From SAR202 cluster bacterium bin16 (GTDB taxonomy: Bacteria; Chloroflexota; Dehalococcoidia; Lucifugimonadales; Australimonadaceae), in assembly GCA_002238425.1 (NCBI GenBank), contig MPMJ01000004.1:37454-101453 (forward strand): a stretch of 64,000 nt of DNA. The letters are read 5' to 3'. Below, piece by piece: positions 5,265-50,076 of the stretch. The notes beneath the pieces were generated by a model. It had not been told where the DNA came from, ran no database searches, and saw only the letters and a list, made by a program, of their open reading frames with translations. The position numbers were made by a program, and so were the translations under genes. The first letter of the stretch is position 1. Each line of letters starts with the position of its first letter.

Positions 5265-6331
5265 CGCGCGGCGGTTGCCTTCAGGGTGTCGGCGTGGGCG
5301 AATATCTCGTCCACGCTGTCGATGGGTAAGCGCGTCTCCTTCTTGTCCGCATCAAAGACGCCAAGATACTTCTGCTTCTTATCGAACCAGAACCGGCAGA
5401 CCGGCTTGCGCTGGTTGTCGTCGAGCATGATGGTGCACGCCCGTTTGGTGTCGCGTAGCGTAACCCGCTGAGGGTCAACCGAAGCATGGAGGATTGCCTT
5501 GACGGCGTAGAACCCGTTGAGTTCGGATTCGGTGGTGACGACTTCGTCTTCGGAATCCTCTGGCGTAGGCATTGAGTCTGAACCATCGGCAAGTTCGGTA
5601 GCCGTAGGGTCTCCCTGGGCCAGGGCAGTATTCAAGGTTCCGCGGAGCTCATCGCGAATCAGTTGACGAGCAGCACGTCTGGTCATCGCTGTGAACTGCT
5701 CAAGCTTGGCCTTGGTCTTTAGCCCCGTGTAGACGCGGCCCATGAGTAGCTTCACTAACTCCTCAGAGGGGTTGGTGACCTCCTGTTGTAGTTCGCTCTT
5801 GATAGCCCGCGTGTACTTCAGTTCGTTTGCTGACGCCCGAATCGCTTGGGGGTTGAACTCTGACTTGACGAACTTAGCGACCTCTTCCACAGGCGCAGAA
5901 TCAGAGTCGAGAAGGTCGAGGATCAGGAAAGGACGGTGATCCATGATGTTGTCCTTCTCCAGATCCGAGTAGAAGAGGTACTTGATACCGTCTGTGTAGA
6001 TGCCGAACTGGGCGGAGGGAGTCGTAGTGAAATAGCGATACAGTTGGCTTGGCTCCTCCTCGTGGAGGCGGGAGCCCGCCTTCTTGGCCTCAATGAGTAT
6101 GAGAGGCTCACCATCGCGGAAGATGGCGTAGTCCACCTTCTCTCCCCTCTTTACCCCTACGTCTGCGGTGTATTCGGGCACTACTTCAGTGAGGTCGGTC
6201 GTGTCGTACCCCAGGACTTCCCTGATGAACGGGTTGATGAGGGCAAGCTTGGTCGCCTCTTCGGTCTGTATGTGAGGCAGCTGCTGTTGTGCCTTGTCCG
6301 CGAGGTCTCGAACGCGGGCGGTGATGTCCAT
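5255..6331 (-). CDS. HsdR_N-type (PD-(D/E)xK) restriction-endonuclease-like protein
   Basis: N-terminus EEATKLALINPFIREVLGYD...KVDYAIFRDGEPLILIEAKK matches the type I restriction enzyme R N-terminal nuclease-domain pattern. The gene is visibly more A/T-rich than its neighbours. Confidence 0.7.
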   Translation of the reverse strand: MDITARVRDLADKAQQQLPHIQTEEATKLALINPFIREVLGYDTTDLTEVVPEYTADVGVKRGEKVDYAIFRDGEPLILIEAKKAGSRLHEEEPSQLYRYFTTTPSAQFGIYTDGIKYLFYSDLEKDNIMDHRPFLILDLLDSDSAPVEEVAKFVKSEFNPQAIRASANELKYTRAIKSELQQEVTNPSEELVKLLMGRVYTGLKTKAKLEQFTAMTRRAARQLIRDELRGTLNTALAQGDPTATELADGSDSMPTPEDSEDEVVTTESELNGFYAVKAILHASVDPQRVTLRDTKRACTIMLDDNQRKPVCRFWFDKKQKYLGVFDADKKETRLPIDSVDEIFAHADTLKATAARYA

Positions 6332-10234: not shown

Positions 10235-10777
10235 ATGACGACCACATCCAGACCGCATGGCGCTCCCGATGACGCATCACCCGGCTCCCTGCGCGAACGC
10301 GCGCGCAGGGCCATAGAGGAGCAGCCCTCGCCCACGGTCACGGTGCTCTCGTCGCTGCTCGCCGCCCAGGACGAATTGGGGTATCTCCCGTACGAGGCCA
10401 TCGACGAGGTCTCGATGTGCACCGGTTCGAGCGTCAACGAGGTCTGGGCGGTCGCGTCGTTCTACCCCAACTTCCGGTTCACGCCTCCGGCCCGCCACTC
10501 GGTCGAGATCTGCTGGGGGCCGACGTGCCACGTGCTCGGGGCGCAGCCCATCCTGCAGGGAATCGTGAGCCACCTCGGCCTCGACGGGGAGGGCGATACC
10601 GAGGATGGGAGCATCTCGCTGAAGTACAACACCTGCCTGGGCGTCTGTCCGCACGCTCCCGCAATGAGCTTCGACCACGAGCTGGCCGGACGCATGTCGC
10701 TCGATGAGGCGGTGAGCCGCGTCGAGCGCATCAGGTCGGGGGATGATGGAGCTGATGGGAGGACGAGCCGTGGGTAA
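10235..10777 (+). CDS. NuoE/HoxE-like thioredoxin-fold [2Fe-2S] subunit (24-kDa type)
   Basis: Cysteine pattern ICWGPTCHVLG ... YNTCLGVCPHAPAM is typical of NuoE, FdsG and HoxE. Confidence 0.85.
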   Translation: MTTTSRPHGAPDDASPGSLRERARRAIEEQPSPTVTVLSSLLAAQDELGYLPYEAIDEVSMCTGSSVNEVWAVASFYPNFRFTPPARHSVEICWGPTCHVLGAQPILQGIVSHLGLDGEGDTEDGSISLKYNTCLGVCPHAPAMSFDHELAGRMSLDEAVSRVERIRSGDDGADGRTSRG

Positions 10778-10809
10778 TCGTCGGCAGACCTCGCTTCCCT
10801 CCACCCGCA

Positions 10810-10850
10810 GTACCCTCACCCTAACCCTCTCCCCTTGTAGGGAGAGGGGA
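10810..10850 (+). repeat. Family B REP-like hairpin repeat
   Basis: gtaccctcaccctaaccctctccccttgtagggagagggga, between the nuoE-like and nuoF-like genes. Confidence 0.85.
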
Positions 10851-10882
10851 TCAGGCACAGGTCCAGCAAGGGAGCAGCAGGC

Positions 10883-12710
10883 GTGACGGAGGCGTACGAG
10901 GCCCTCGCGAAGCGCGCCTCGGCGCGGTGGGACGAACTGCACGCCAGGCCCTGGGTGCGCGTCGGGACGGGCCTGATGGGCGAGGCCGTGGGCGCGCTCG
11001 AAGTGCTTGCGGCGGTGCGGGAAGCCGTCGAAAAGGCAGGCGTCGAGGCGACCATCTCCGAGGTGGGCACGACCGGGCTGTGCTACGCGGAGCCGATCGT
11101 GGACGTCCACGTGCCGGACCGCCCCCGTGTGCGCTATGGGAACGTCCGGCCCGAGCAGGTCGAGGCCATCGTGCAGCGACACGTCATTGGCGGTGAGCCA
11201 GTGACGGAGCTCGCGCTCGCGAGCGTCGATTCGAACGTTCCGGGCGTCCCGCGTTTCGAGCAGCTGCCGATGATGCAGGGACAGGTGCGCGTCGCGCTGC
11301 GCAACGCGGGGGAGATCGACCCGACCGACATCGACCAGTACGTCGCGCGGGGCGGCTTCTCCGGGCTGGACAAGGCGCTGACGTCGCTCACGACGGAGCA
11401 GACGCTGGACGAGGTGAAGAACTCCGGCCTGCGCGGCCGCGGTGGCGCGGCGTTCTCGACCGGCATGAAGTGGGGCTTCCTCGCGGGGAACCCCGCGCCG
11501 CAGAAGTACATCCTCTGCAACTGCGAGGAGGGCGACCCCGGCGCGTTCAACGACAAGACGATCCTGGAGTCGGACCCGTTCACGCTCGTGGAGGGCTGCA
11601 TCATCGCGGGCTACGCGACGGGTGCGAGCAACGGCATCGTCTTCATCCGGCACGGCCACGATTCCCCGATAGACCGCACCCGCGCCGCGATACAGGCGTG
11701 CTACGACAACGGCGTGCTCGGGCCCAGCGTCCTCGGCACGGAGTTCTCGTTCGACATGGAAGTCTCGCTCGTCGGTGAGTCGTACGTCGCGGGCGAGGAG
11801 ACGGCGCTGATGGAGGCGATAGAGGGCAAGCGTTCCATGCCGCGGTTCCGACCTCCGTTCCCGGCGGCCTACGGCGTGTGGGGCAGGCCGTCCAACATCA
11901 ACAACATCAAGACGCTCAGCTACGCGCCGGAGATCGTGCGTCGCGGCGCGGAGTGGTTCTCGAGCATCGGCACCGAGAAGAGCACAGGCACGGCCATCGC
12001 CTGCCTCTCCGGCGACATCCGCTACCCGGGTCTCGTCGAGGTGCCGTTCGGCCTGACGGTCCACGACATCATCGAGGGGATGGGCGGCGGCGAGCCGAAC
12101 GGCAAGGCGCTGAAGTTCCTGCAGACCGGCGGGGGGGGCCGCCGGCGGGGGGCCGGCGGGGGGGGGCGGGCGGGGGGGGCCGCTCCGCCCGCGGGGGCCG
12201 GCGGAGCAGTTCGACATGGTGCTCGACTTCGACGCGATGGTCGCGGCGGGCGCGATGTTCGGCTCAGGCGGCCTCATCGTCTGCAACGAGGAGCGTTCGG
12301 TCGTCGACCTCACGCGCACGCTCGTCGCGTTCGATCAGATGGAGTCGTGCGGGAAGTGTTTCCCGTGCAGGCTCGGCATGAGCCACATCCTGGAGATACT
12401 GGAGCGCATCGCGGACGGGAAGGGGCGCAGCAGCGACATGGACCTGATGGAGCGCGTCGGCGTGAACATGCGCGGAGGTTCGCTCTGCGGTCACGGGCAA
12501 CTGGGGTACAACCCCGTGGCGAGCGCGGTGCGCTTCTTCGGCAGCGAGTTCGAGGCGCAACTGGAGGACGGCGCGCCATCCCTGGCTTCGTTCGTGGGGC
12601 CGAAGTCCACGCGGCGCGGTGCGCAGATGTCGGGCGACACGCCGACGGCGTCGGTGAAGCCGGACTTCGTGATGCACATCGAGGCTGCGGGGGCAGCACC
12701 CCCATCCTAG
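10883..12710 (+). pseudogene. NuoF/HoxF/FdsB-like NADH-binding FMN/[4Fe-4S] flavoprotein, reading frame broken at 12131-12200
   Basis: The N-part in frame 2 (GLRGRGGAAFSTGMKW, CNCEEGDPGAF, YVAGEETALMEAIEG) runs up to ..ALKFLQTGG. The C-part in frame 0 (EQFDMVLDFDAMVAAGAMFGSGG...ESCGKCFPCRLG...SLCGHG) ends at 12710. The listed 650-aa ORF tail after 12130 is Gly/Arg nonsense. Confidence 0.75.
12131..12197 (+). repeat. G-run tract (runs of 8, 6, 9, 3, 8 and 5 G) inside the nuoF-like gene
   Basis: ggggggggccgccggcggggggccggcgggggggggcgggcggggggggccgctccgcccgcggggg. Removing 43 nt (12134-12176) restores one continuous frame. Confidence 0.8.
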
Positions 12711-12735
12711 CCTTCCCCCATCAAGGGGGAAGGGA
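12697..12735 (+). repeat. Family A REP-like hairpin repeat, contains the stop codon of the nuoF-like gene
   Basis: The TAG at 12708-12710 lies inside the repeat head catcctagcc. Confidence 0.85.
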
Positions 12736-12851
12736 CCGAACCGGTGAACAGGAACCGGACGGGAGGCAGAGACCGAGCAGAGGGCATAGGCGGACGAGGG
12801 ACGGGAACCGGACAGAGGCAAGGAACGAAGGGTAGGCGAACCAGGCAGGAC

Positions 12852-15707
12852 ATGGCTGACGAGATTACGATCACGATAGACGGGCAGGAGGTCACGACGA
12901 CCCCCGGCAAGATGGTGGTGCAGGCCGCCAACGACGCCGGCATCTACGTGCCGTACCTCTGCTACCACCCCGGCATGAAGCCGTACGGCGCGTGCCGCAT
13001 GTGCGTCGTCGAGGTCGAGGGTCAGCGCGGTACGCCTGCGTCCTGCACGTTGCCGGTCCGCGACGGCATGGTCGTGAACACCAAGGGCGACGAGGCAGTG
13101 AAGGTGCGGGACACGACGCTTGACCTGCTGCTGTCGGAACATCCACACGGATGCTTGACATGCCACCGGATAGACCTGTGCGGCCCGCAGGACATCTGCC
13201 TGCGGCACGTGGATGTGGTCGACCGGTGCGTGACCTGCCCGAAGAACGAGCGCTGCGAACTGAAGGACACCACGCGCTTCCACCCGCAGGAGCTGGTCTC
13301 CCCGCTCACGTACCAGTACCGCAACCTGCAGGTGGAGACGAAGGACCCGTTCTACGACCGCGACTACAACCTCTGCATCGTCTGCGCGCGCTGCACGCGG
13401 GCGTGCGACGAACTGCGCGGCGACGTTGCGATAGGCATGACCGAGCGCGCGGGACAGGTGCTCGTCGGCACGGTGATGGGCGACTCGCTCCTCGAGTCCG
13501 GCTGCGAGTTCTGCGGCGCGTGCATCGATGTCTGCCCGGTGGGCGCGCTCACGGAGACCTCCTACAAGTGGGAGCGTCCGGCGCGCGTCGAGCAGTCGGT
13601 CTGCGCCGAGTGTCCCGTCGGCTGCACGATGACCTACGAGGTCAACCACTGGGAGCGGGTCGTGCGCGCGGTGCCGGAGCTGAACTCCCCGGCGAACATG
13701 GGGCAGGCGTGCTTCCAGGGCAAGTTCGGGTTCGAGTACGTCAACGACAAGCGCCGCATCCGGAAGCCGCTCGTGCGCCGGGACGGCGAGCTGCAGGAGG
13801 CCACGTGGGACGAGGCGATAGCCGCCGCGGCCGAGGGGCTTGCGCAGTACAAGGGCTCGACGTTCGCGCTCATGGCGAACCCTCGCAACACCAACGAGGA
13901 GCTCTACGCCGCGCAGAAGTTCGCGCGCGCCGTCATGGGCTCGAACAGCGTCGACGTGGCGTCGAACGACCGCCCCGGCACGGTCGAGGGACTGCAGGAC
14001 GTGTTCGGCTACTTCGCCGGTACGATGACCACGTGGGAGCTTGCCGACTCCGCCGCCGTCATGGTGGTGAGCGCGAACCTCACTGAGGAGCAGAACGTCA
14101 TCGGCGTGCCGATCAAGCGGGCGGTCCGCAACGGTACGCAGCAGCTCATCGTCATCGACTCGCGCGAGGTCGAGCTGACGCGGTATGCGTCGCTCTGGCT
14201 GAGGCCGTACCCGGGCACCGACCCCGTCCTGCTCGGCGGGCTGCTGCGCTGCATCGTCGACAACGGGCTGGCGGACATGGAGTTCGTCAACGAGCGCGCG
14301 GAGGGCTGGGACGAACTGGCCGCCTGCCTCGCACCGTTCACGCTGGACGCGGTCGCCGCTGAGACCGGCGTGTCCGCGGCAAGCATCGAAGAGGCAGCGC
14401 GCGTCTACGCCGGGTCTGGCGCCTCGGCGCTGCTGCTGGGCGGCGACGGTTCAGTCGGCGGCACGCGGCGGACGATGTCGCGGATGGCTGCCGGGCTCGC
14501 CATCGCCACGGGCAACGTGGGCAAGCGCGGCGCGGGCGTCATGCCGCTCTACCAGGGCGCGAACGGGCAGGGCGCGTGGGACATGGGCATCTGGCCGGGA
14601 GCGACGCCCGGTCACAACCTCATCCAGGAAACGCCGGAGGCCCGCGAGGCGCTCGGCGCGCTCTGGGGCGCTCCCGTGCCGCTGGAGATCGGCTCAGGCA
14701 ACCGTCACATGTTCGACCGGGCTCGCGAAGGCGCGATCAAGGCGATGCTCGTGCTGGACGACCACGTCCACTACGAGGACGGCACGCTCGGCGATGTGAC
14801 GGGCGGGCTCGATGCGCTGGAGTTCCTCGTGGCAACGAGCGCGTTCCCGTCGGCGGTCACGGAACGGGCGGACGTCGTCTTTCCCGCCGAGGTATGGGCC
14901 GAGAAGACGGGCACGTACACGAACATCGAGCGTCGTGTGCAACCGCTCCGCAAGGTGGCGAAGAACAAGCGCGTCGACTCGCGGAGCGACCTCGACGTGG
15001 TCTGCGCCATCGCGGGCGCGATGGGAGCGCGGGGCTTCTCGTGGGACGGCCCGGCGCAGGTACTCGACGAGATAGGGCAGGCCGTGCCCGAGTACGCCGG
15101 CATCTCCTGGGAGCGCCTGCTTCGCGAGCGGCTCGACATCGTGACGACTCCCAGTGATGAACCGCAACCGACGCAGGTGATGTACACAGGCAACGTGCTC
15201 ACCGGCCTCCAGTGGCCGTGTGCGGCCGAGGGTTCGGCAGATGAACCTGAGATGTTCGTAAGCCGGTTCCGGCACGGCAAGGCGCAGTTGCAACCCGTCG
15301 CGTGGCACCCGCGCCCCACAGCCGGTGCGGAGTTCCCGCTGATGCTTGCGCATGGGCGTGTGCTCCTGGAGCCGGGCCGCAAGCCGAACGTGACGGTGGT
15401 CGGCAAGCGCAACCGTGTGGAGCGCGAGGAGCGCTTCGTACTCAACCCCGCGGACGCCGCCGCGGCCAGGCTCGGCGAGGGCGACGCGGCCTCGGTGACG
15501 ACGGCTGACGGCAGCGAGCGTCGCGGCGTGGTCGCGCTCTCGGACGCCGTGCCCGCGGGCGTGGTGTCGCTGACGACGCTCTTCGGCGAGTTGGCGGTCG
15601 AGGTCGACTCCTCCGACCGCCCTGACCCCATGAATCACATCGCCCGGCTGAACGCCGTGCCGGTACGTATCGCGGCCACGTCCCACGCCGGTTCACCCTC
15701 ACCCTAG
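12852..15707 (+). CDS. NuoG/FdhA-like molybdopterin-oxidoreductase-family subunit with N-terminal [2Fe-2S]/[4Fe-4S] domains
   Basis: ORF 12744..15707 trimmed to ATG 12852 (MADEITITIDGQEVTTTPGKMVVQAANDAGIYVPYLCYHPG..GACRMCVVEV). Fe-S cysteine clusters are followed by MopB and C-terminal beta-barrel-like regions. Confidence 0.85.
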   Translation: MADEITITIDGQEVTTTPGKMVVQAANDAGIYVPYLCYHPGMKPYGACRMCVVEVEGQRGTPASCTLPVRDGMVVNTKGDEAVKVRDTTLDLLLSEHPHGCLTCHRIDLCGPQDICLRHVDVVDRCVTCPKNERCELKDTTRFHPQELVSPLTYQYRNLQVETKDPFYDRDYNLCIVCARCTRACDELRGDVAIGMTERAGQVLVGTVMGDSLLESGCEFCGACIDVCPVGALTETSYKWERPARVEQSVCAECPVGCTMTYEVNHWERVVRAVPELNSPANMGQACFQGKFGFEYVNDKRRIRKPLVRRDGELQEATWDEAIAAAAEGLAQYKGSTFALMANPRNTNEELYAAQKFARAVMGSNSVDVASNDRPGTVEGLQDVFGYFAGTMTTWELADSAAVMVVSANLTEEQNVIGVPIKRAVRNGTQQLIVIDSREVELTRYASLWLRPYPGTDPVLLGGLLRCIVDNGLADMEFVNERAEGWDELAACLAPFTLDAVAAETGVSAASIEEAARVYAGSGASALLLGGDGSVGGTRRTMSRMAAGLAIATGNVGKRGAGVMPLYQGANGQGAWDMGIWPGATPGHNLIQETPEAREALGALWGAPVPLEIGSGNRHMFDRAREGAIKAMLVLDDHVHYEDGTLGDVTGGLDALEFLVATSAFPSAVTERADVVFPAEVWAEKTGTYTNIERRVQPLRKVAKNKRVDSRSDLDVVCAIAGAMGARGFSWDGPAQVLDEIGQAVPEYAGISWERLLRERLDIVTTPSDEPQPTQVMYTGNVLTGLQWPCAAEGSADEPEMFVSRFRHGKAQLQPVAWHPRPTAGAEFPLMLAHGRVLLEPGRKPNVTVVGKRNRVEREERFVLNPADAAAARLGEGDAASVTTADGSERRGVVALSDAVPAGVVSLTTLFGELAVEVDSSDRPDPMNHIARLNAVPVRIAATSHAGSPSP

Positions 15708-15731
15708 CCCTCTCCCCTCAAGGGAGAGGGG
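15692..15731 (+). repeat. Family B REP-like hairpin repeat, contains the stop codon of the nuoG-like gene
   Basis: The TAG at 15705-15707 lies in the repeat head caccctcaccctagcc. Confidence 0.85.
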
Positions 15732-15760
15732 ATCAAACGACGCCGCAGTAACGGAGGAAC

Positions 15761-16510
15761 ATGACTCAAGCGCAGGACCGTCTGGCGAATCTGCCGCGTG
15801 CATACGTGGCGAAGAAACAGGAAGTGGCGGAAGACCTTTTCCTGTTGTGGCTCCGTCCCGATGAGCCGTTCCGCTTCAAACCCGGCCAGTACATCACGAT
15901 AGGGACGGGCGGGATCGAGCGCCCGTACTCGATAGCGTCCGCGCCGTACGAGTCGCTCATCGAGCTGTTCATCGAATACGTGCTGCCGGAGTATGGCGGG
16001 AAGCTCACGCCGTTGCTCTGGAACCTGCACGTGGGGGACTCGGTCTCCATGCGCCCGCGCGCCAAGGGGCTGTTCGTCTTCCAGCCGCAGTTCCATCACC
16101 ACCTCATGCTGGGGACCGTGACGGGCGTCGCGCCTTTCGTGAGCATGATCCGCCAGGCGCTGAAGGACAACATCCGCGGCCATCACTTCTACGTGATGGA
16201 GGGCGCCAGCCATCAGGACGAGTTCGTCTACGACTCCGAGCTGCTCCGGCTCGCCGAGCGCATGCCCGAAGTCGTGACCTTCGTGACGACGGTGAGCCGC
16301 CCGCAGGCTGAGCGCAACCGCAGCTGGAACGGCCCCACCGGACGGGTGAACACGCTCGTCGAGGAGTACATGCAGCGCTGGAGCCTGCCGAAGGAAGACA
16401 CCGCCATCTACCTCTGCGGCAACCCCGGCATGATCGAGGACGTGAAAGATCGCCTCGCCGGGCAGGACTGGAACCTCTACGAGGAGCGCTTCTGGAAGGA
16501 AGACGAGTAG
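15761..16510 (+). CDS. Ferredoxin-NADP+ reductase-type flavoprotein (FAD/NAD(P)-binding)
   Basis: Carries the RPYSIAS FAD-binding motif, the GTGVAPF NAD(P) motif and a YLCGNPGM tail. Confidence 0.85.
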   Translation: MTQAQDRLANLPRAYVAKKQEVAEDLFLLWLRPDEPFRFKPGQYITIGTGGIERPYSIASAPYESLIELFIEYVLPEYGGKLTPLLWNLHVGDSVSMRPRAKGLFVFQPQFHHHLMLGTVTGVAPFVSMIRQALKDNIRGHHFYVMEGASHQDEFVYDSELLRLAERMPEVVTFVTTVSRPQAERNRSWNGPTGRVNTLVEEYMQRWSLPKEDTAIYLCGNPGMIEDVKDRLAGQDWNLYEERFWKEDE

Positions 16511-21075: not shown

Positions 21076-21116
21076 AATGGGCCGCGTTGGGACGTGAGCA
21101 GTGTGGGAGGTGTGCG

Positions 21117-21914
21117 ATGGTGCGAGAGGCCGAGCGGGCAGAAGCGGACGGCAAGGCGGAGATAAGCCTTGCGGAGCAGTTCGCGCTGCACCCGGAGATG
21201 GACGAGCCGGAGGAGTTCCTCGGCGGGCCGTACAACCTCTCGGTGTGGCAACCGAAGGACCCCGAGCATCGCCAGTTCCAGCAGAACGCGCCGAGGGCCG
21301 GCGAGCCGATGCCTGACTTCACGCTGCCGCTGCTGGACGGGGGCGAACTGACGCTGTCGTCGCTGCGTGGGAAGCCGGTGATGATCGAGTTCGGCTCCGT
21401 CACCTGACCGCCATGCGTGGCGGAGTCTCCGTCCATGGAAGACCTTGCGAACAGGTACGCAGACGACGCGCACTTCCTGTTCGTCTACACGCGGGAGGCG
21501 CATCCCGGCGAGCACTACCCGCCCATCCACTACTATGAGCAGAAAGTGCTGCACGCACGTTCGTTCAGGGAGCGGCTGGGGATCGGGCGCACCATCCTCG
21601 TGGACTCGGTGCAGGGGAAGGTGCACCGGGTGTTCGGCGGCGTATCGAATATGTCGTGGATCGTCGACCACACGGGACGCGTTGCATACCGGGCAGCGTG
21701 GACGGTTGCCGACGACATCGAGCGCGCGCTCCAGGAGGTGCTGCGAGCCCGGATGCTGAAGCGCGAGGGGCAGCCCGCGGCGGTGTTCTACCGGGAGATC
21801 GTGGGTCTGCGTACGATGCGCGAAGGGCCGCCGGACGGGCTGCCGCGATACATGGGCGGCGAGGTCGCTGCGCGGCAGTTCGAGGCCGCCCGCCGCAAGA
21901 CGGAACGGGCGTAG
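21117..21914 (+). CDS. Iodothyronine-deiodinase-like thioredoxin-fold protein with in-frame TGA (candidate selenocysteine) at 21405-21407
   Basis: ORFs 21087..21407 and 21417..21914 share one frame and are separated only by TGA plus 3 codons. The read-through gives ..GKPVMIEFGSVT-U-PPCVAESPSMEDLANRYADDAHFLFVYTREAHPGEHY. Start taken at ATG 21117 (gggagg RBS 6 nt upstream), with ATG 21087 as an alternative. Confidence 0.75.
21419..21433 (+). promoter_or_regulatory. Candidate bacterial SECIS hairpin (6-bp stem, GUC loop) 11 nt after the UGA
   Basis: ggcgga-guc-uccguc pairs as G19-C33, G20-U32, C21-G31, G22-C30, G23-C29 and A24-U28. The geometry is the same as at 34485-34499. Confidence 0.55.
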
Positions 21915-21928
21915 GGACTGGAGGTAGC

Positions 21929-22315
21929 GTGCCCATCTACGAGTTCAGGTGCAACGCGTGCGGCGCCAAGTCGTCGGCGTTCTTCAGGATGATGCGTTCG
22001 GACGCCGCGGCGGCCTGCGGCCGCTGCGGGAGCGCCGATACCCGGAGGCTGTTCTCCACGTTCAAGGTCCGGATGCCGCGTCCCGGTCCGGAGCAGCTCA
22101 ACAAGGCGGAGCTGCTGGACGGCGTCGACTACACGAATCCCGCCTCGATGGCGAACTTCTTCCGCAAGATGGGGAGCGCCTTCGACGACGAGCCGAACGA
22201 GCACATGGACGAGATCGTGGGCAGGCTCGACCACGGCGAGCCGGTATACAAGGCACTGGACCTGGATATGGGCGGCCATGCAGGGCATTCGCATGGGCCT
22301 GCTCCGGCAGAGTAG
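21929..22315 (+). CDS. FmdB-family zinc-ribbon protein
   Basis: GTG at 21929 with ggaggt upstream. VPIYEFRCNACGAKSSAFF...ACGRCGSADTRRLFSTFKV has the CxxC...CxxC FmdB pattern. Confidence 0.75.
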   Translation: MPIYEFRCNACGAKSSAFFRMMRSDAAAACGRCGSADTRRLFSTFKVRMPRPGPEQLNKAELLDGVDYTNPASMANFFRKMGSAFDDEPNEHMDEIVGRLDHGEPVYKALDLDMGGHAGHSHGPAPAE

Positions 22316-26575: not shown

Positions 26576-26809
26576 ATGCCGATGAAGTGGCAGGACTACA
26601 TATCCACCGACCCGACGGTGTGCCACGGCAGGGCCTGTATCACCGGTACGCGGGTGATGGTTACGGTCATCCTTGACAGCCTGGCGGAGGGTTTAGAGGC
26701 GGAGGAGATCGTGGCGCACTATCCGTCTGTACCGCGCGAGGGCGTGCAGGCAGCCCTGCTCTATGCCGCCGAGCTGGCGAAGGAACGCGTCGTGCCGCTG
26801 GGCGCATAG
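26576..26809 (+). CDS. DUF433-family antitoxin-like protein
   Basis: DPTVCHGRACITGTRVMVTVILDSLAEGLEAEEIVAHYPSVPREGVQAALLYAAE is the DUF433 pattern. The ORF opens at 26552 and I prefer the ATG at 26576. Confidence 0.7.
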   Translation: MPMKWQDYISTDPTVCHGRACITGTRVMVTVILDSLAEGLEAEEIVAHYPSVPREGVQAALLYAAELAKERVVPLGA

Positions 26810-26821
26810 GGGCGGCGTTCT

Positions 26822-27175
26822 ATGCGAGTGAAGCTTGACGAGAACCTGCCGGTCCAGTTCAAGCGCCTGTTCACTGAATCCGGTCACGAGGCGGACACGG
26901 TTCTCGACGAGAACATGGGCGGCGCAACGGATGCCGAGATTGCGGCCACCTGCCTCGCTGAAGGCCGCGTGCTTGTGACGCAGGACCTCGATTTCGCTGA
27001 CATCAGGGCGTACCCACCCTCGGAGTATCCAGGCATCGTCGTCTTCCGGCTGTCCAGCCAAGGGCGAGGCCAACTCCTCCAGGTCGGCGCCGCCCTTATC
27101 CAGACGTTGGCTAGGTCATCGCCGGCGGGACAGCTCTGGGTAATAGAAGACGCGCGGGTGCGCATCAGGGAGTAG
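26822..27175 (+). CDS. DUF5615 / PIN-like putative toxin
   Basis: MRVKLDENLPVQFKRLFTESGHEADTV...GATDAEIAATCLAEGRVLVTQDLDFADI is the Mut7-C/PIN-like pattern that usually pairs with DUF433. Confidence 0.65.
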   Translation: MRVKLDENLPVQFKRLFTESGHEADTVLDENMGGATDAEIAATCLAEGRVLVTQDLDFADIRAYPPSEYPGIVVFRLSSQGRGQLLQVGAALIQTLARSSPAGQLWVIEDARVRIRE

Positions 27176-27207
27176 CCACTACTTCCTCAGAAGGGGAACA
27201 AGGCTCA

Positions 27208-27558
27208 CTAGTACTCGATCGCCGTCCGTGGTTCGAGTCGTTCGGCGATAGGGTCGACCTTGAAGCCGAGGACCTCCAGTGTCGTCACGCCGATGAGTGG
27301 AATGTCTCCCTCTTCAGCGAGGGTGACGAGGATGGGGCTCCTGATGCCTTCCATCTCGGCGTTCGCGAGGGCCAACTGCCTGACCGTTACACGACCGTCG
27401 GCCAACTCGACTTCCACCTCGCGTACGACCTCCAGGCCGAGCCGTTCACCTAACGATGAGGGAATCTTGGTGAAGGTGGCGCCGCTGTCAACGAGGCACC
27501 GGAGAGTGTCCGACGCGGACGACCCGGAGAGATTGAGGTCTGCGTATGTAGCGCCCAT
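27208..27558 (-). CDS. Retropepsin-like (clan AA) aspartic protease, second copy
   Basis: 116-aa ORF with a LVDSGATFTKIP (DSG) catalytic-type motif and ..IGVTTLEVLGFKVDP near the C-terminus. No small partner gene is adjacent. Confidence 0.7.
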   Translation of the reverse strand: MGATYADLNLSGSSASDTLRCLVDSGATFTKIPSSLGERLGLEVVREVEVELADGRVTVRQLALANAEMEGIRSPILVTLAEEGDIPLIGVTTLEVLGFKVDPIAERLEPRTAIEY

Positions 27559-27567
27559 GCCTCTATC

Positions 27568-33774: not shown

Positions 33775-34599
33775 ATGGCTGACTATCCCCGGAACGACCT
33801 GCTCGTCGAGACCGGCTGGCTCGCGGAGCATCTGACGGACCCGAACGTACGCGTCATCGAGATGGCGCAGGACGGCAGCGACTTCGAGGCCGGGCATATC
33901 CCCGGCGCGGCGCTCTCGCCGACCTGGCAGGTCAAGGGCTCGGAGCAGAAAAGGCTCGTCGCGCCGCCGGACGAGGCGAAGGCGTGGTTCGAGTCCGTGG
34001 GTATCGGCGACGACACGCTCGTCGTGGGGTACGACCGCTTCCACAGCCGGGACGCATCGCGCCTCTGGTGGGTGCTGAACTACTACGGACACACCAACGT
34101 TCGCGTCCTGAACGGCGGGTGGACGAAATGGATCGCGGAGGGGCGCGACGTCGAGGCCGGCCCTTCACAGGTGACCGGCGGCGGCGTGACCTTCACTCCG
34201 CAGCCTCCGAACCATGACATCGAATCGGACGTCGACAAACTCAAGGCCGCGGTTGGCGCGGACGACACCGTCATCTGGGACGTGCGGACGGAGGACGAGT
34301 ACACGGGAGCGAACTCGCGCGGCAACGCTCGGGTAGGGCACGTGCCCGGCGCGGCGTTCCTGGAGTGGGTGCATCTCGTGGCGGACGACGACACCTTCAA
34401 GTCCGCGGAGGAGATCGAGGAGATAGCGCGCGGGCTCGGCATCACGCCGGAGAAGACGGTCCACGTCTACTGACAGGGCGGGGTGCGTGCGTCGCACGCC
34501 ATGCTCGCCCTCAAGCTCATCGGCCACGAGTCTGTGTGCATGTACGACGGCTCGATGGGCGAGTGGGCCAACCGGGACGATACCCCGCTGGAGGTGTAG
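33775..34599 (+). CDS. Two-domain rhodanese (thiosulfate/3-mercaptopyruvate sulfurtransferase family) with in-frame TGA (candidate selenocysteine) at the active-site position, 34471-34473
   Basis: ORF 33775..34473 stops at ..EKTVHVY-TGA. The same frame continues QGGVRASHAMLALKLIGHESVCMYDGSMGEWANRDDTPLEV to TAG at 34597-34599. The TGA occupies the catalytic Cys of the rhodanese C-x-x-G-x-R-(S/T/A) loop. Confidence 0.8.
34485..34499 (+). promoter_or_regulatory. Candidate bacterial SECIS hairpin (6-bp stem, GUC loop) 11 nt after the UGA
   Basis: gcgugc-guc-gcacgc gives perfect Watson-Crick pairs between 34485-34490 and 34494-34499. An outer helix agggcg/cgcccu (34475-34480 / 34506-34511) encloses it. 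Confidence 0.6.
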
Positions 34600-46018: not shown

Positions 46019-47041
46019 ATGGGAGTGCCTGCCTCACAAGCGTGGACAGTTGCGTCTCACGTCATCAGGCAACGTTTGGCGGGACGCAAACGCTATCCGC
46101 TCGTGCTCATGCTGGAGCCGCTGCTGCGCTGCAACCTCGCATGCGCGGGGTGCGGGAAGATCCAGTACCCGCCGCACGTGCTTAAGCGCGCGCTCACCGT
46201 CGAGCAGTGCCTGGCCGCGGTGGAGGAGTGCGGCGCTCCCATCGTCAGCATCCCCGGCGGAGAGCCGCTGCTCTACCCCCACATCGGGGAGCTGGTTGAA
46301 GAGTTGACCCGCCGAAAGAAGTACGTTTACCTCTGCACCAATGCCCTGCTGCTCAGGGAGAAGTTGGAGCAGCACGCCTTCACTCCCTCGAAATTCCTCA
46401 GCTTCAGCGTGCACATGGACGGCCTCCGCGAGGAGCACGACGCGTCAGTCTGTCGCGACGGCGTGTACGACATCGCTGTCGATGCGATACGGGAAGCCGT
46501 CCGGCGAGGCTTCCGCGTCACCACCAACACGACGCTGTTCAACACGTCCGAGCCGATGCGCGTCCGCGATTTCTTCGACGCGATGATGGACCTCGACGTC
46601 GAGGGCATGATGGTGTCGCCGGGGTACAGCTATGAGAAAGCCCCGGACCAGGACTCATTCCTGGAGCGCGGACGAACGCAGGAGCTATTCTCCGAGGTGC
46701 TCGCGGGCAGGAAGAAGCGCTGGCGGTTCAACCAGTCGCCGCTCTTCCTCCAGTTCCTCATGGGCAAGCGCGATTTCGAATGCACGCCGTGGGGCAACCC
46801 GCTCTACACGATCTTCGGATGGCAGCGCCCCTGCTACCTGCTGCAGGACGGCTATGCCGCCACCTTCCGGGAGCTGATGGACGAGACGCCGTGGGAAGAG
46901 TATGGGCGGGAGAGCGGCAATCCTCACTGCCAGGACTGCATGGTGCACTCCGGGTACGAACCTACCGCCGTCCATGCGACGTTCACGACCTGGCGCGGTC
47001 TGCGCGACTCCGCCGTTGCCACGCTCACTGGCAAGCTGTGA
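46019..47041 (+). CDS. hpnH: Adenosyl-hopene transferase (radical SAM) HpnH
   Basis: GRKRYPLVLMLEPLLRCNLACAGCGKIQYP contains the CxxxCxxC radical-SAM cluster. The conserved HpnH body includes WGNPLYTIFGWQRPCYLL, and the gene lies next to shc. Confidence 0.9.
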   Translation: MGVPASQAWTVASHVIRQRLAGRKRYPLVLMLEPLLRCNLACAGCGKIQYPPHVLKRALTVEQCLAAVEECGAPIVSIPGGEPLLYPHIGELVEELTRRKKYVYLCTNALLLREKLEQHAFTPSKFLSFSVHMDGLREEHDASVCRDGVYDIAVDAIREAVRRGFRVTTNTTLFNTSEPMRVRDFFDAMMDLDVEGMMVSPGYSYEKAPDQDSFLERGRTQELFSEVLAGRKKRWRFNQSPLFLQFLMGKRDFECTPWGNPLYTIFGWQRPCYLLQDGYAATFRELMDETPWEEYGRESGNPHCQDCMVHSGYEPTAVHATFTTWRGLRDSAVATLTGKL

Positions 47042-47044
47042 GCC

Positions 47045-47395
47045 ATGAACGAGCACGAGGCACAAACCGGTACTGCACACCAGGGAGACGCTAATGGCGT
47101 CGCCGAGCTCGTAGAACGCGCCTTCCAGTATCGCGGCGACGTTACCGTTCGCATCGATGACGGCAGTTCCGTAACGGGCTATCTCTTCAACCGGAACGGT
47201 CGTAGCAGTGAACCGTTCGCCCAGTTGTTCGAGGCACAGACCGGACGTGAGGTGTCGCTCCCATACCGCATCATCGCCGAAGTGCTCTTCACGGGTCGTG
47301 ATGCCGCTGCCGCAGCGGACCAGCGCTTCGAGGCCCTGCAGGGTCTGCGGGAGGAGGAGCAGGCAGGTAGGGGAGCGGAACGCCATGGGGCCTGA
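47045..47395 (+). CDS. Hypothetical protein within the hopanoid cluster
   Basis: 116-aa ORF starting 4 nt after the hpnH stop. I recognise no motifs and coding is plausible from context only. Confidence 0.45.
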   Translation: MNEHEAQTGTAHQGDANGVAELVERAFQYRGDVTVRIDDGSSVTGYLFNRNGRSSEPFAQLFEAQTGREVSLPYRIIAEVLFTGRDAAAAADQRFEALQGLREEEQAGRGAERHGA

Positions 47396-48077
47396 AGCCG
47401 CCCTGACGCCCTTCCTGACCGTAGCCCCGACTCAGCGGGAGCTGGGAGGACTGGGCTACGGCGACGCCCGCACCAGGGCGAACGTCGTGGGCATCGGACG
47501 CCCTGCGGGCGAGCAGGTCGCTGCCCTGCTCGATGCCGCGCCGTGCCGGATACTCGTCTCTCTGGGATACGCAGGCGCCCTCGATCCACACCTCCATCCC
47601 GGTGACCTCGTGGTTGCGAACGCCTACCTTCATGGACCGGATGCGGCGATCCCCGGCGCTCCGCACACCACCCGCGCGGCCATGCTGCTGCGGCAGGCCG
47701 GCATCTCCTCCCTCGAAGGACCGGTGCTGACCGTAGACGAGCCCCTCCTTACGCCTCGCGCCAAGCGCCGGGCGTACTACGGCAGCGGTGCGCTGGTCGC
47801 TGACATGGAGGGCCGCTGGATCGCAGAAGAAGCAGCATCGAGAGACGTTACCCTCATAGGGATACGCGCCGTGCTGGACGAGGCCCACTTCCCTCTCCCT
47901 TCGTTCATCGCAACCATCATCGCGGACGAGGGCCGGCAGGAGTGGGCGCACGCACTCCGGGCAATGTCGCATCCGTCCGCAGTCAAGAGCTTCCTTCCCC
48001 TCGCATTGAAATCCCGCGAAGCGTCCCGCGCCCTGCAGATGGCGGTACAGACCATCCTTCCGGCGCTCGTCCCGTAA
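47385..48077 (+). CDS. hpnG: Hopanoid-associated phosphorylase HpnG (PNP/MTAN-like nucleosidase)
   Basis: In-frame ATG at 47385. ..VSLGYAGALDP.L.PGDLVVA.. and ..GALVADMEG are nucleoside-phosphorylase-fold motifs. It sits between hpnH and shc. Confidence 0.8.
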   Translation: MGPEAALTPFLTVAPTQRELGGLGYGDARTRANVVGIGRPAGEQVAALLDAAPCRILVSLGYAGALDPHLHPGDLVVANAYLHGPDAAIPGAPHTTRAAMLLRQAGISSLEGPVLTVDEPLLTPRAKRRAYYGSGALVADMEGRWIAEEAASRDVTLIGIRAVLDEAHFPLPSFIATIIADEGRQEWAHALRAMSHPSAVKSFLPLALKSREASRALQMAVQTILPALVP

Positions 48078-48093
48078 CAGGCGAGACAAGTTC

Positions 48094-50076
48094 GTGACCT
48101 GCATGGAACACCGCGTTCGCAAGGCGTTGGAGCGGACGCAAGAGTACTTCTTCCGCACGCAGGACCAGGACGGCTACTGGTGGGGTGAGCTGGAGTCCAA
48201 CCCGACCATGGAGGCGGAGTACATCATGCTCACGCACTTCATGGGGTCGGACGAAGGCGGCCGCATCACCCGCGTCGCGGAAGACATCCGGCGCAGGCAA
48301 TCTGGGGACGGCTCCTGGCGGATGTACTACGGCGCGCCCGGAGACCTGAGCACGTCCATCGAGTGCTACTTCGCGCTCAAGCTCGCCGGCGACCCGGCCA
48401 ACGCTCCCCACATGGCGCGGGCGCGCGCCTTCATCCTCGCCCAGGGCGGAGTGCCCCAGGCGCGTGTATTCACCAGGATATGGCTCGCTCTCTTCGGCCA
48501 GTGGGACTGGAAAGGGACGCCGGCCATGCCCCCGGACATGATGCTGCTGCCGAAGTGGGCGCCCTTCAACATCTACCGCTTCGCGAGCTGGGCGCGCGCG
48601 ACCATCGTGCCGATGACCGTCATCCTCACGCTCCACCCCACGCGCCCTCCGCCCGAAAGCGCATGGGTCATGGAGCTCTACCCGGAAGGCCCCGTTACGT
48701 TCACGCTTTCACGCCGCAAGGCGAAGCCGTTCTCCCTCAAGGGAGGGTTCCTGCTCCTGGACAAGGCGCTGCGGGTCTATCGCAATCTGCCCTTCATCCC
48801 CGGCCGGGAGCGGGCGCTCAGGGCAGCCGTCGACTGGATCGTCGAGCATCAGGAGGCGGACGGCTCGTGGGGAGGCATACAACCGCCCTGGGTCTACTCG
48901 CTCATCGCGCTGAGCGCCCTCGGATACCGGCTGGACCACCCGGTTGTCGCGAAGGGGCTGGAGGGCTTCAGGCAGCACTGGAGCCTCCCGTCGGAAGACG
49001 GCAAGGCGCTCAGGGTGCAGGCGTGTCTCTCGCCCGTGTGGGATACGTGCCTGGCGATGCGCGGGCTCCTCGACTCCGGCGTGCCGCCCGACCACCCGGG
49101 CATCCGGCGCGCCGCGGCCTGGCTCATCCGCGAGGAGATACGGGTCAAAGGCGACTGGGCCGTCTACCGTCCGCATCTCGAACCCAGCGGATGGGCGTTC
49201 GAGTTCGACAACGTCCACTATCCGGACATCGACGACTCAGCCATCATCGTGACCGACCTCGCGCTCGCGCGGATGAACGACGACGCAGGCGAACGGGCCA
49301 GAAGGGCGTCTGTCGACCGCGCCGTCGCGTGGCTGACGGGCATGCAGAGTTCGAGCGGGGGATGGGCCGCGTTCGACTGGAACAACGAGTCCCACGAGCT
49401 GGCGGAGATCCCGTTCGCCGACTTCGGCGAGCTCCTGGATCCGCCCAGCGTGGACGTCACCGCGCACGTGCTGGAGATGTACGGCATGCTGGGATACGGG
49501 ATGGACCATCCGCCCGTACGCCGGGGGCTCGCCTACATATGGGACCAGCAGGAGCACGACGGCGCGTGGTTCGGACGTTGGGGTGTGAACTACGTCTACG
49601 GCACGGGCGCGGTGCTCCCTGCGCTGCAAGCGCTGGGAGTGGACATGACGCAGCCCCGCGTCCGCCGTGCGGTCGAATGGCTCCTCGCGCACCAGAATAC
49701 GGACGGCGGATGGGGAGAGACCTGCGTCAGCTATCCGGACCCCTCGTTGCGCGGGCAGGGCGAGAGTACGCCCTCGCAGACATCGTGGGCGCTCATCGCG
49801 CTCATCGCGGCGGGTGAAGCGCTCAGCGAGTCCGTCGAGCGGGGCGTCGAGTTCCTCCTCCAGCGTCAGCAGGACGACGGAACGTGGGACGAGCCGCAGT
49901 TCACGGGGTGCGGCTTCCCCGGCTACGGCCCCGGCAACCAGCCCGAGAGGTACGAACCGCTCGACGACCCGAACTCGCAGGGGCCGGAACTGAGTGCTGC
50001 GTTCATGATCAACTACCACCTCTACCGCAACTACTTCCCGCTCTGGGCGCTGGGGCGGTACGCGCAAGCGCTCTAG
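48094..50076 (+). CDS. shc: Squalene-hopene cyclase
   Basis: Multiple QW repeats (QDGYWWGE, QSGDGSWR, QEADGSWGG, QSSSGGWAAF, QEHDGAWFGRWG, QNTDGGWGE, QQDDGTWDE) and the catalytic D-x-D-D motif PDIDDSAIIV. Confidence 0.95.
   Translation: MTCMEHRVRKALERTQEYFFRTQDQDGYWWGELESNPTMEAEYIMLTHFMGSDEGGRITRVAEDIRRRQSGDGSWRMYYGAPGDLSTSIECYFALKLAGDPANAPHMARARAFILAQGGVPQARVFTRIWLALFGQWDWKGTPAMPPDMMLLPKWAPFNIYRFASWARATIVPMTVILTLHPTRPPPESAWVMELYPEGPVTFTLSRRKAKPFSLKGGFLLLDKALRVYRNLPFIPGRERALRAAVDWIVEHQEADGSWGGIQPPWVYSLIALSALGYRLDHPVVAKGLEGFRQHWSLPSEDGKALRVQACLSPVWDTCLAMRGLLDSGVPPDHPGIRRAAAWLIREEIRVKGDWAVYRPHLEPSGWAFEFDNVHYPDIDDSAIIVTDLALARMNDDAGERARRASVDRAVAWLTGMQSSSGGWAAFDWNNESHELAEIPFADFGELLDPPSVDVTAHVLEMYGMLGYGMDHPPVRRGLAYIWDQQEHDGAWFGRWGVNYVYGTGAVLPALQALGVDMTQPRVRRAVEWLLAHQNTDGGWGETCVSYPDPSLRGQGESTPSQTSWALIALIAAGEALSESVERGVEFLLQRQQDDGTWDEPQFTGCGFPGYGPGNQPERYEPLDDPNSQGPELSAAFMINYHLYRNYFPLWALGRYAQAL

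Follow-up and report, generated by a model that had tools for sequence, protein, structure and literature searches.

Bacterial proteins related to the iodothyronine deiodinases (Dio) were described in 2005 by Zhang, Fomenko and Gladyshev from the Sargasso Sea, in selenocysteine (Sec)- and cysteine (Cys)-containing forms (Pfam00837), together with bacterial selenocysteine insertion sequence (SECIS) elements, and a redox function was suggested for them (PMC1088965). A 2008 analysis of the Global Ocean Sampling (GOS) data reported 22 deiodinase-like sequences (PMC2398784), and reviews of 2022 and 2026 list a "Deiodinase-like protein, PF00837, UxxC" with reference accessions (PMC9312934, PMC13188914). 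The family has been predicted, by bioinformatics alone, for twenty years without an assigned reaction. In the literature we found neither a biochemical characterisation of the bacterial deiodinase-like proteins nor a paper linking SAR202 with selenoproteins. Here we analyse a gene of this kind in a stretch of 64,000 nucleotides from SAR202 cluster bacterium bin16 (contig MPMJ01000004.1), referred to below as the window, whose positions are used throughout. The product of window positions 21117-21914 is very likely a single cytoplasmic oxidoreductase with a thioredoxin fold, a member of the prokaryotic deiodinase-like selenoproteins in which an internal UGA is read as Sec. The literature agrees with a preliminary description of this locus, according to which such proteins had been predicted from marine metagenomes and never characterised.

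A single gene interrupted by an in-frame UGA

Two open reading frames (ORFs) of the forward strand, 21087..21407 and 21417..21914, share one frame, and between them lie TGA (21405-21407) and the codons CCG CCA TGC. The preliminary description had reported this arrangement, and the junction is exactly as written there: read through, it translates to GKPVMIEFGSVT-stop-PPCVAES...AHFLFVYTREAHPGEHY, with PPCVAESPSMEDLANRYADDAHFLFVYTREAHPGEHY directly after the TGA. The frame given there for the 5' ORF stands, and the start has to be moved: translation is likely to begin at ATG 21117 rather than at TTG 21087. GGGAGG lies 6 nt upstream of this ATG, and alignments with the relatives begin at its Met. 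Positions 21117-21914 (+) form one gene of 265 codons, with the TGA as its sole interruption. Its features are as follows.

21117..21914, + strand: complete coding sequence of the predicted deiodinase-like selenoprotein, 265 codons, UGA-Sec at codon 97, stop TAG at 21912-21914.
21405..21407, + strand: in-frame TGA, the proposed selenocysteine codon (U97), a conserved TGA in a Cys-aligned column.
21414..21416, + strand: TGC encoding Cys100, the +3 Cys of U-P-P-C and the presumed resolving residue.
21105..21110, + strand: putative Shine-Dalgarno-like GGGAGG, read from the sequence, 6 nt 5' of the ATG.

The protein counted from ATG 21117 has 265 residues, including U97 and C100, and its relatives span residues 1-265 through the TGA in one frame (tblastn). 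The ratio of nonsynonymous to synonymous substitution rates (dN/dS), estimated against eight equal-length relatives, is 0.12-0.21 for the 96 codons 5' of the TGA and 0.01-0.17 3' of it. Purifying selection thus acts on both sides of the TGA, and both halves are therefore translated in the same frame.

Public records call the gene as pieces of 96 aa and 159 aa, both in the same species and in a relative with a 97% identical C-terminal fragment, as the preliminary description had expected of gene callers; the copy in OY764542.1, which like OZ242348.1 is the complete chromosome of a close relative, is 97% identical at the protein level, and assembly GCA_034428675.1 has an identical C-terminal fragment. 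When 5.8 billion proteins were searched, the 43 closest (45-97% identity) were without exception fragments of 148-176 residues that cover only the C-terminal 60% of the query, as expected of gene callers stopping at the TGA. Full-length homologues appear only below about 42% identity. The window was also screened for in-frame TGA codons flanked on both sides by coding-type GC content at third codon positions (GC3). Six sites were obtained, four of them antisense to real genes; the remaining two are the deiodinase-like gene and a rhodanese gene.

Conservation of the UGA codon among relatives

A scan with one genome per species yielded 80 related genomic loci. The column aligned with the window TGA holds TGA in 70 of them and a Cys codon (TGT or TGC) in the other ten, while TAA and TAG are never found there. 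The TGA is shared among 70 independent assemblies, with protein identity reaching down to about 40%. Lineages with the TGA form comprise Dehalococcoidia/Chloroflexota, Ktedonobacterales, Acidobacteriota, Alphaproteobacteria and Actinomycetota; the Cys form occurs in Terriglobales, Korobacteraceae and Longimicrobiales. The motif reads EFGS[VI]T-U-PPC in clade 1, which consists of metagenome-assembled genomes (MAGs) of Dehalococcoidia/Chloroflexota, and U-P[YF]C in other Dehalococcoidia and in Ktedonobacterales. Actinomycetota loci (L051, L060, L062 and L071) have the TGA form with EFGSFT-U-PYCSAEGP...YTHEAHPGE, and one of them belongs to a cultured carrier, Pseudonocardia nigra DSM 104088 (L051, NZ_JAHKRK010000260.1), with its TGA at position 6115 of the locus. 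Nearly all Sec-type loci continue after the TGA with P[PYF]C, the exceptions being L043 (Ser) and L049 (GPC).

Full-length homologues carry Cys at the TGA-aligned column, in motifs such as FGSATCP, FGSFTCP and FGSCTCPPF. The preliminary description had placed the TGA on the catalytic Sec position of the deiodinases and had proposed to look for Cys or Sec in this column; the homologues and the aligned Sec-to-Cys position of Dio3 agree with that placement. Judged from this pattern of conservation, from the purifying selection on both halves and from the hairpin and the rhodanese gene described below, the internal TGA almost certainly encodes selenocysteine, and we infer that Sec is actually inserted into the protein.

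The searches also returned a protein of 3793 residues (P0285), 23 separate stretches of which match the C-terminal fragment (best for query positions 56-94, at 37% identity). Either a giant repeat protein with deiodinase-like segments or a compositional artefact may lie behind these matches.

Kinship to the deiodinases

With Cys replacing the stop, the protein matches the Pfam family T4_deiodinase (PF00837) at E = 5.7e-10 and 39.3 bits, against a cut-off of 27. It also matches AhpC-TSA (PF00578; 3e-12, 47 bits, cut-off 26) and Redoxin (PF08534; 43.2 bits, cut-off 26.6), which shows membership at the level of the superfamily only. Compared with solved structures, the family profile scores best with the catalytic core of mouse Dio3 (5.3e-29) and then with Dio2 (1e-22), the next match being a thioredoxin-family lipoprotein (1e-13). 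The sequence of the mouse Dio3 structure, a Sec-to-Cys mutant, reads FGSCTCPPF...IYIEEAHPSDGW and is aligned with FGSVT-U-PPC...VYTREAHPGE of the window protein. The AlphaFold model of a Cys homologue (P0050) has a mean predicted local distance difference test (pLDDT) score of 91.1, and its top two fold matches in the PDB are Dio3 (4tr3) and Dio2 (9h48), with uncharacterised thioredoxin-like proteins and ResA close behind. Profiles and model together indicate that the family is specifically related to the deiodinases, as opposed to generic thioredoxin-fold proteins. The identity suggested in the preliminary description, a deiodinase-like thioredoxin-fold protein, is upheld by the PF00837 match above cut-off and by the Dio3 score. 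Its likening of U-P-P-C to CxxC holds as well, the x-x spacing being equal and UxxC being listed in the reviews.

An invariant pentapeptide lies downstream of the active-site motif.

21492..21506, + strand: R126-E127-A128-H129-P130 (REAHP), invariant in two alignments (A1 and A3).

It corresponds to E-E-A-H202-P of Dio3, on the margin of the deiodinase insertion, and is aligned with the EAHP of Dio3 and Dio2. Its Glu and His are among the residues of the proposed proton relay of the deiodinases, which consists of Ser127, Thr129, Tyr157, Glu160, His162 and His182 in Dio2 numbering (PMC11592359). The first five have counterparts in the window protein, namely Ser94, Thr96, Tyr124, Glu127 and His129. 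At the sixth position most relatives have P-x-H, and the family consensus 'pahrsleqk' aligns there with PQHRSLEDR of Dio3.

A conserved hairpin downstream of the UGA

The messenger RNA can form a small hairpin shortly after the UGA.

21419..21433, + strand: predicted bacterial SECIS-type hairpin, 6-bp stem of 21419-21424 with 21428-21433, loop GUC at 21425-21427.

Its sequence is GGCGGA-GUC-UCCGUC and its onset lies 11 nt 3' of the UGA. Conservation of the structure was assessed on a gap-free alignment of 42 non-redundant sequences, each comprising the TGA and the following 51 nt. RNAalifold predicts a single helix, pairing columns 15-20 with 24-29, with compensatory double changes in five of the six pairs. 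With a seventh pair added, 89.1% of the cells are paired, against 71.5% in shuffled alignments. The covariation score of the helix is 0.535 against 0.196 in shuffles, a value reached by none of 500 shuffles, and slid controls do not exceed 0.231. The first base of the loop (column 21) is an invariant G. At least five of the six pairs are kept in 58 of the 67 TGA sequences (66 loci and the window), while the ten Cys-type loci keep two to four. Some of the compensations (GCG...CCG, GGG...CCC and GGA...CUC) pair an amino acid change with a synonymous change in the third position of a Pro codon, and such coupled changes are hard to ascribe to protein constraints alone. The spacing and size of the window hairpin are those of the minimal SECIS of E. 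coli fdhF, as reportedly delimited by Liu et al. in 1998 (cited in PMC1088965).

The preliminary description had proposed to look for a SECIS within 21405-21470. The conserved hairpin does lie in that interval; the minimum-free-energy hairpin obtained by folding it, 21408-21423, has a z-score of -0.36 and was rejected as the SECIS, since it shows no covariation on the 42 sequences (score 0.070, below all shuffles). We also discarded a lower stem, formed by columns 7-11 with 30-34 (CCAUG/CAUGG), with 66.7% of cells paired, nearly no compensatory change and an occurrence restricted to clade 1.

The structure differs among clades. The Actinomycetota hairpin, GCAGAG-GGUC-CUCUGC, is shifted by one base relative to that of Dehalococcoidia. 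Seven loci of Acidobacteriota and Alphaproteobacteria (L050, L063, L066, L070, L073, L075 and L077) lack the hairpin of columns 15-29, keeping one to four of its six pairs; a longer stem-loop is predicted in the same loci, with the apical sequence CCAUGG-AAGA-CAUGG and the loop about 31 nt past the UGA.

A second UGA-interrupted gene in the window

The rhodanese gene recovered by the window screen lies about 12 kb from the deiodinase-like gene and repeats its organisation.

33775-34599, + strand: split gene of a rhodanese with two domains, of the thiosulfate/3-mercaptopyruvate sulfurtransferase type; its TGA (proposed U233) occupies 34471-34473.
34485-34499, + strand: predicted SECIS-type hairpin GCGUGC-GUC-GCACGC (columns 15-29), loop GUC at 34491-34493.

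The TGA falls on the catalytic Cys of the rhodanese (...TVHVY-stop-QGGVRAS...), and with Cys substituted the second Rhodanese domain of Pfam runs across it. The hairpins of the two genes are identical in offset, length and GUC loop. Among the closest rhodanese homologues, of Chloroflexi/SAR202 and 54-93% identical, about 100 stop at residue 230-235, while those at 44-52% identity are full length and have Y-C-Q in the two sequences read. A further SAR202 copy (L086) has the TGA, a continuing frame and a hairpin with the loop GGC. Rhodanese-related sulfurtransferases are a catalogued prokaryotic selenoprotein family (PMC1088965). A recoding geometry common to two genes argues strongly, if indirectly, for a functional SelB system; given a rhodanese with TGA at its catalytic Cys and the same hairpin, the organism very probably decodes UGA as Sec.

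TGA is also the ordinary stop of 17 of the 52 predicted ORFs of the window, including those of MutS, a CoA-transferase and a radical-SAM gene, and several of the TGA-terminated genes have Pfam domains that reach the gene end. Rfam at gathering thresholds detects only tRNA-Lys in the window; neither tRNA-Sec nor a SECIS family is matched. Twenty additional proteins of the window, selected in part for a SelA/SelB/SelD-like size, were scanned with Pfam and belong to hopanoid, CoA-metabolism, two-component and other genes, with no Sec machinery among them.

Proposed decoding and chemistry

Under the selenoprotein reading, UGA 21405 would be decoded as selenocysteine in translation, and the hairpin at 21419-21433, by analogy with that of E. 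coli fdhF, would bring SelB-GTP-Sec-tRNA(Sec) to the ribosome. When selenium or the Sec machinery is lacking, translation would terminate at the UGA and leave a fragment of 96 residues. In the complete protein, Sec97 is predicted to sit at the N-terminus of helix alpha-1, within FGSVT-U-PPC. Its selenolate would attack an oxidising substrate, for which a peroxide or some other electrophilic oxidant is the likeliest candidate; Cys100 would then resolve the oxidised selenium into a selenenylsulfide, and a thioredoxin-type reductant would reduce the latter and recycle the enzyme. Ser94, Thr96, Tyr124, Glu127 and His129 may protonate the leaving group, as the counterparts of the deiodinase relay. 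Presumed here are the resolving function of Cys100 as well as reductant and substrate, and peroxide or other thiol-redox chemistry is given about an even chance.

Several observations weigh against the selenoprotein reading or limit what it can say. The position and size of the hairpin vary by clade, and there is no single SECIS model for the whole family. No selA, selB, selD or tRNA-Sec is present in the 64-kb window, and ARAGORN finds no tRNA-Sec either in the window or in the 60 loci scanned. At the sixth relay position, His219 in Dio3, the window protein has Ile137, next to which stands His138. The modelled homologue, P0050, is a Cys protein about 33% identical to the window protein. Lastly, the genomic context imposes no functional constraint, and the neighbourhoods of three other clades share nothing.

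The alternative that survives best accepts the selenoprotein and changes its chemistry: the enzyme would be a true reductive dehalogenase, whose selenolate, as in the animal deiodinases, would remove the halogen (I+ or Br+) of a halogenated phenolic substrate and whose Cys100 would regenerate the selenol. Its substrates might conceivably be iodo- or bromotyrosine-derived natural products, which are common in marine and sponge habitats. The specific kinship in sequence and fold to Dio2 and Dio3, the retention of five of the six proton-relay residues, the strong preference for Sec over Cys (70 of 80 loci) and the abundance of marine Dehalococcoidia/SAR202-type MAGs among the carriers speak for such an activity. 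On the other hand, loop-D is nine residues shorter and lacks S-D-G-W, the Arg clamp of GGRGP is not conserved in the alignment, the carriers include soil Ktedonobacterales, Acidobacteriota and Pseudonocardia, no recurring halogen-metabolism genes stand beside the gene in the neighbourhoods examined, and a general redox role was what the original description of the family had anticipated (PMC1088965). We regard dehalogenation as unlikely on balance. A further-reaching and similarly doubtful extension holds that the bacterial Sec enzymes represent the ancestral deiodinase chemistry, as cofactor-free, selenium-dependent reductive dehalogenases of halogenated phenolic natural products; marine, sponge-associated and soil bacteria would then act on iodo- and bromotyrosine derivatives and bromophenols, which we think improbable. 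A dehalogenase activity, if true, would bear on the origin of thyroid-hormone deiodination, and the ancestral form of the proposal would add a route separate from the corrinoid reductive dehalogenases for which Dehalococcoidia are known.

A second alternative dispenses with selenium: near-cognate or reassigned decoding would place a standard amino acid at the UGA, whether Trp, Gly or Cys. UGA reassignments exist in some uncultured bacteria, and the lack of Sec machinery in the window would suit such a reading. We nevertheless hold it very improbable. TGA terminates many well-supported genes of the window; its only two in-frame coding occurrences both fall on catalytic Cys columns of redox enzymes and are followed by the same hairpin, which covaries and is missing from the Cys homologues.

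Least credible is a real stop, whether in a pseudogene, through a sequencing or assembly error for TGC/TGT, or between two small genes: gene callers do report two ORFs, and a GGAG 9 nt 5' of ATG 21435 makes an internal start formally possible, but the comparative data effectively refute it, given an identical TGA in 70 independent assemblies and never TAA or TAG, purifying selection on both halves, a cut that would fall inside the beta1-alpha1 active-site motif of a thioredoxin fold that is continuous in Cys homologues, and an internal Met that lacks conservation, being replaced by Leu in clade 2, with callers placing the start more downstream.

Genomic neighbourhood and other loci

The gene next to the deiodinase-like selenoprotein gene lies on the same strand and is probably co-transcribed with it.

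21929..22315, + strand: Zn_ribbon_8 (FmdB-type) protein of 128 aa (Pfam PF09723, E = 5.2e-13), with a GTG start 14 nt past the stop.

A matching N-terminal zinc-ribbon motif is found just 3' of the gene in 19 of the 80 loci, all within the closest relatives (L001-L020). The neighbour is confined to close relatives and therefore reflects local synteny, as opposed to a family-wide partnership.

Elsewhere in the window, positions 10235-16510 (+) hold an operon resembling those of NAD-linked formate dehydrogenase, with genes for a 2Fe-2S thioredoxin-like protein, Complex1_51K, a molybdopterin subunit of 951-987 aa and an NAD_binding_1 protein. No in-frame stop interrupts this molybdopterin subunit, which is therefore not a Sec form here, in contrast to many FdhA proteins. 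Window 46019-50076 (+) carries a hopanoid biosynthesis cluster, comprising a radical-SAM/DUF3463 (HpnH-like) protein, a PNP_UDP_1 phosphorylase-family (HpnG-like) protein and squalene-hopene cyclase. A DUF433/DUF5615 pair and a retropepsin-like aspartic protease gene at about 26576-27560 (15142-16124 in L082) are found in the species of the window (L082 and L084), and a relative (L081) has in the same place a single 131-aa ORF without a Pfam match; these genes look like a small accessory insertion.

On a clade 2 contig, about 5 kb from the deiodinase-like gene, there is an ORF of 160 aa with only the GRDB domain of glycine reductase selenoprotein B (10429-10911, minus strand, in L089; 10411-10893, minus strand, in L090). 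An ORF this short points to a further selenoprotein truncated at its UGA.

Comparison with known systems

The deiodinases share with the bacterial family the thioredoxin/peroxiredoxin-like fold seen in Dio3 (4tr3) and Dio2 (9h48), the strand-helix motif FGSxT-U-PP and Y-x-x-E-A-H-P, and most bacterial members also have the P-x-H-R-S-L-E-x-[KR] segment in common with them. The two groups differ in several respects. The omega-loop (loop-D) is nine residues shorter in the bacterial family and is devoid of S-D-G-W; AHPGE of the window protein leads straight into the P-x-H segment in the profile alignment, with D-G-W absent. Dio3 has GGRGP with the Arg275 clamp, whereas the bacterial family has [RK]A[AS]WT there (the window protein reads RAAWT and the consensus 'raawt'), an assignment of moderate confidence given the weaker alignment of this segment. 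The residue at +3 from Sec is Cys in the bacterial protein and Phe in Dio. The bacterial protein lacks the N-terminal membrane anchor, its N-terminus being, by inspection, acidic and free of a hydrophobic segment, and about 60 additional residues form a conserved helical extension at its C-terminus, with the motifs FYRE..GLR and GG..A..F. The SECIS is of the bacterial type and lies within the coding region, whereas that of Dio is eukaryotic and lies in the 3' untranslated region.

A deiodinase-like domain with FG[SN]xTC and REAHP also occurs in the 'deiodinase family protein' of NCBIfam (NF038285), of Planctomycetota type. The window protein differs from these proteins, which have Cys, a long loop with T-D-G-W, GRGP, N-terminal EF-hand regions and signal-like segments; EF-hand fusions of the domain were noted in a 2021 study (PMC9402790). 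It scores 92.9 bits against a cut-off of 250 and covers only positions 173-325 of the 347 in the profile, and is therefore not a member of NF038285. The ResA/TlpA/Etrx-type oxidoreductases and the peroxiredoxins share the thioredoxin fold and a redox pair at the N-terminus of helix alpha-1, where the U-P-P-C spacing equals that of CxxC. They are set apart from the window protein by weaker profile similarity (1e-13 against 5e-29), by its Sec in place of Cys and by its REAHP insertion; the peroxiredoxin signature P-x-x-x-T-x-x-C is missing from it, there being by inspection no Pro at -7.

Compared through published descriptions, the window gene shows no essential difference from the prokaryotic deiodinase-like selenoprotein family. 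It shares with that family the Cys-aligned UGA, the PF00837 match, U-x-x-C and a SECIS with a small G-containing loop, and on this sequence evidence it is a well-supported new member of a family predicted in 2005, not a discovery. What the present comparison adds is a SECIS supported by covariation, which fixes its geometry (an 11-nt spacer, a 15-nt hairpin and a loop that begins with G), a placement of the family in Dehalococcoidia and at least four other lineages, and a residue-level comparison with Dio, in which the relay residues are mostly kept and the full-length thyronine-binding loop and an aligned clamp are missing. With Pseudonocardia nigra DSM 104088 it also identifies a carrier available in culture, where knock-outs and labelling with 75Se are practicable. 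The deiodinase-like gene and the rhodanese gene are each split into two "hypothetical" fragments in all public records examined, and the selenoproteomes of genomes of the Dehalococcoidia/SAR202 type are therefore under-called.

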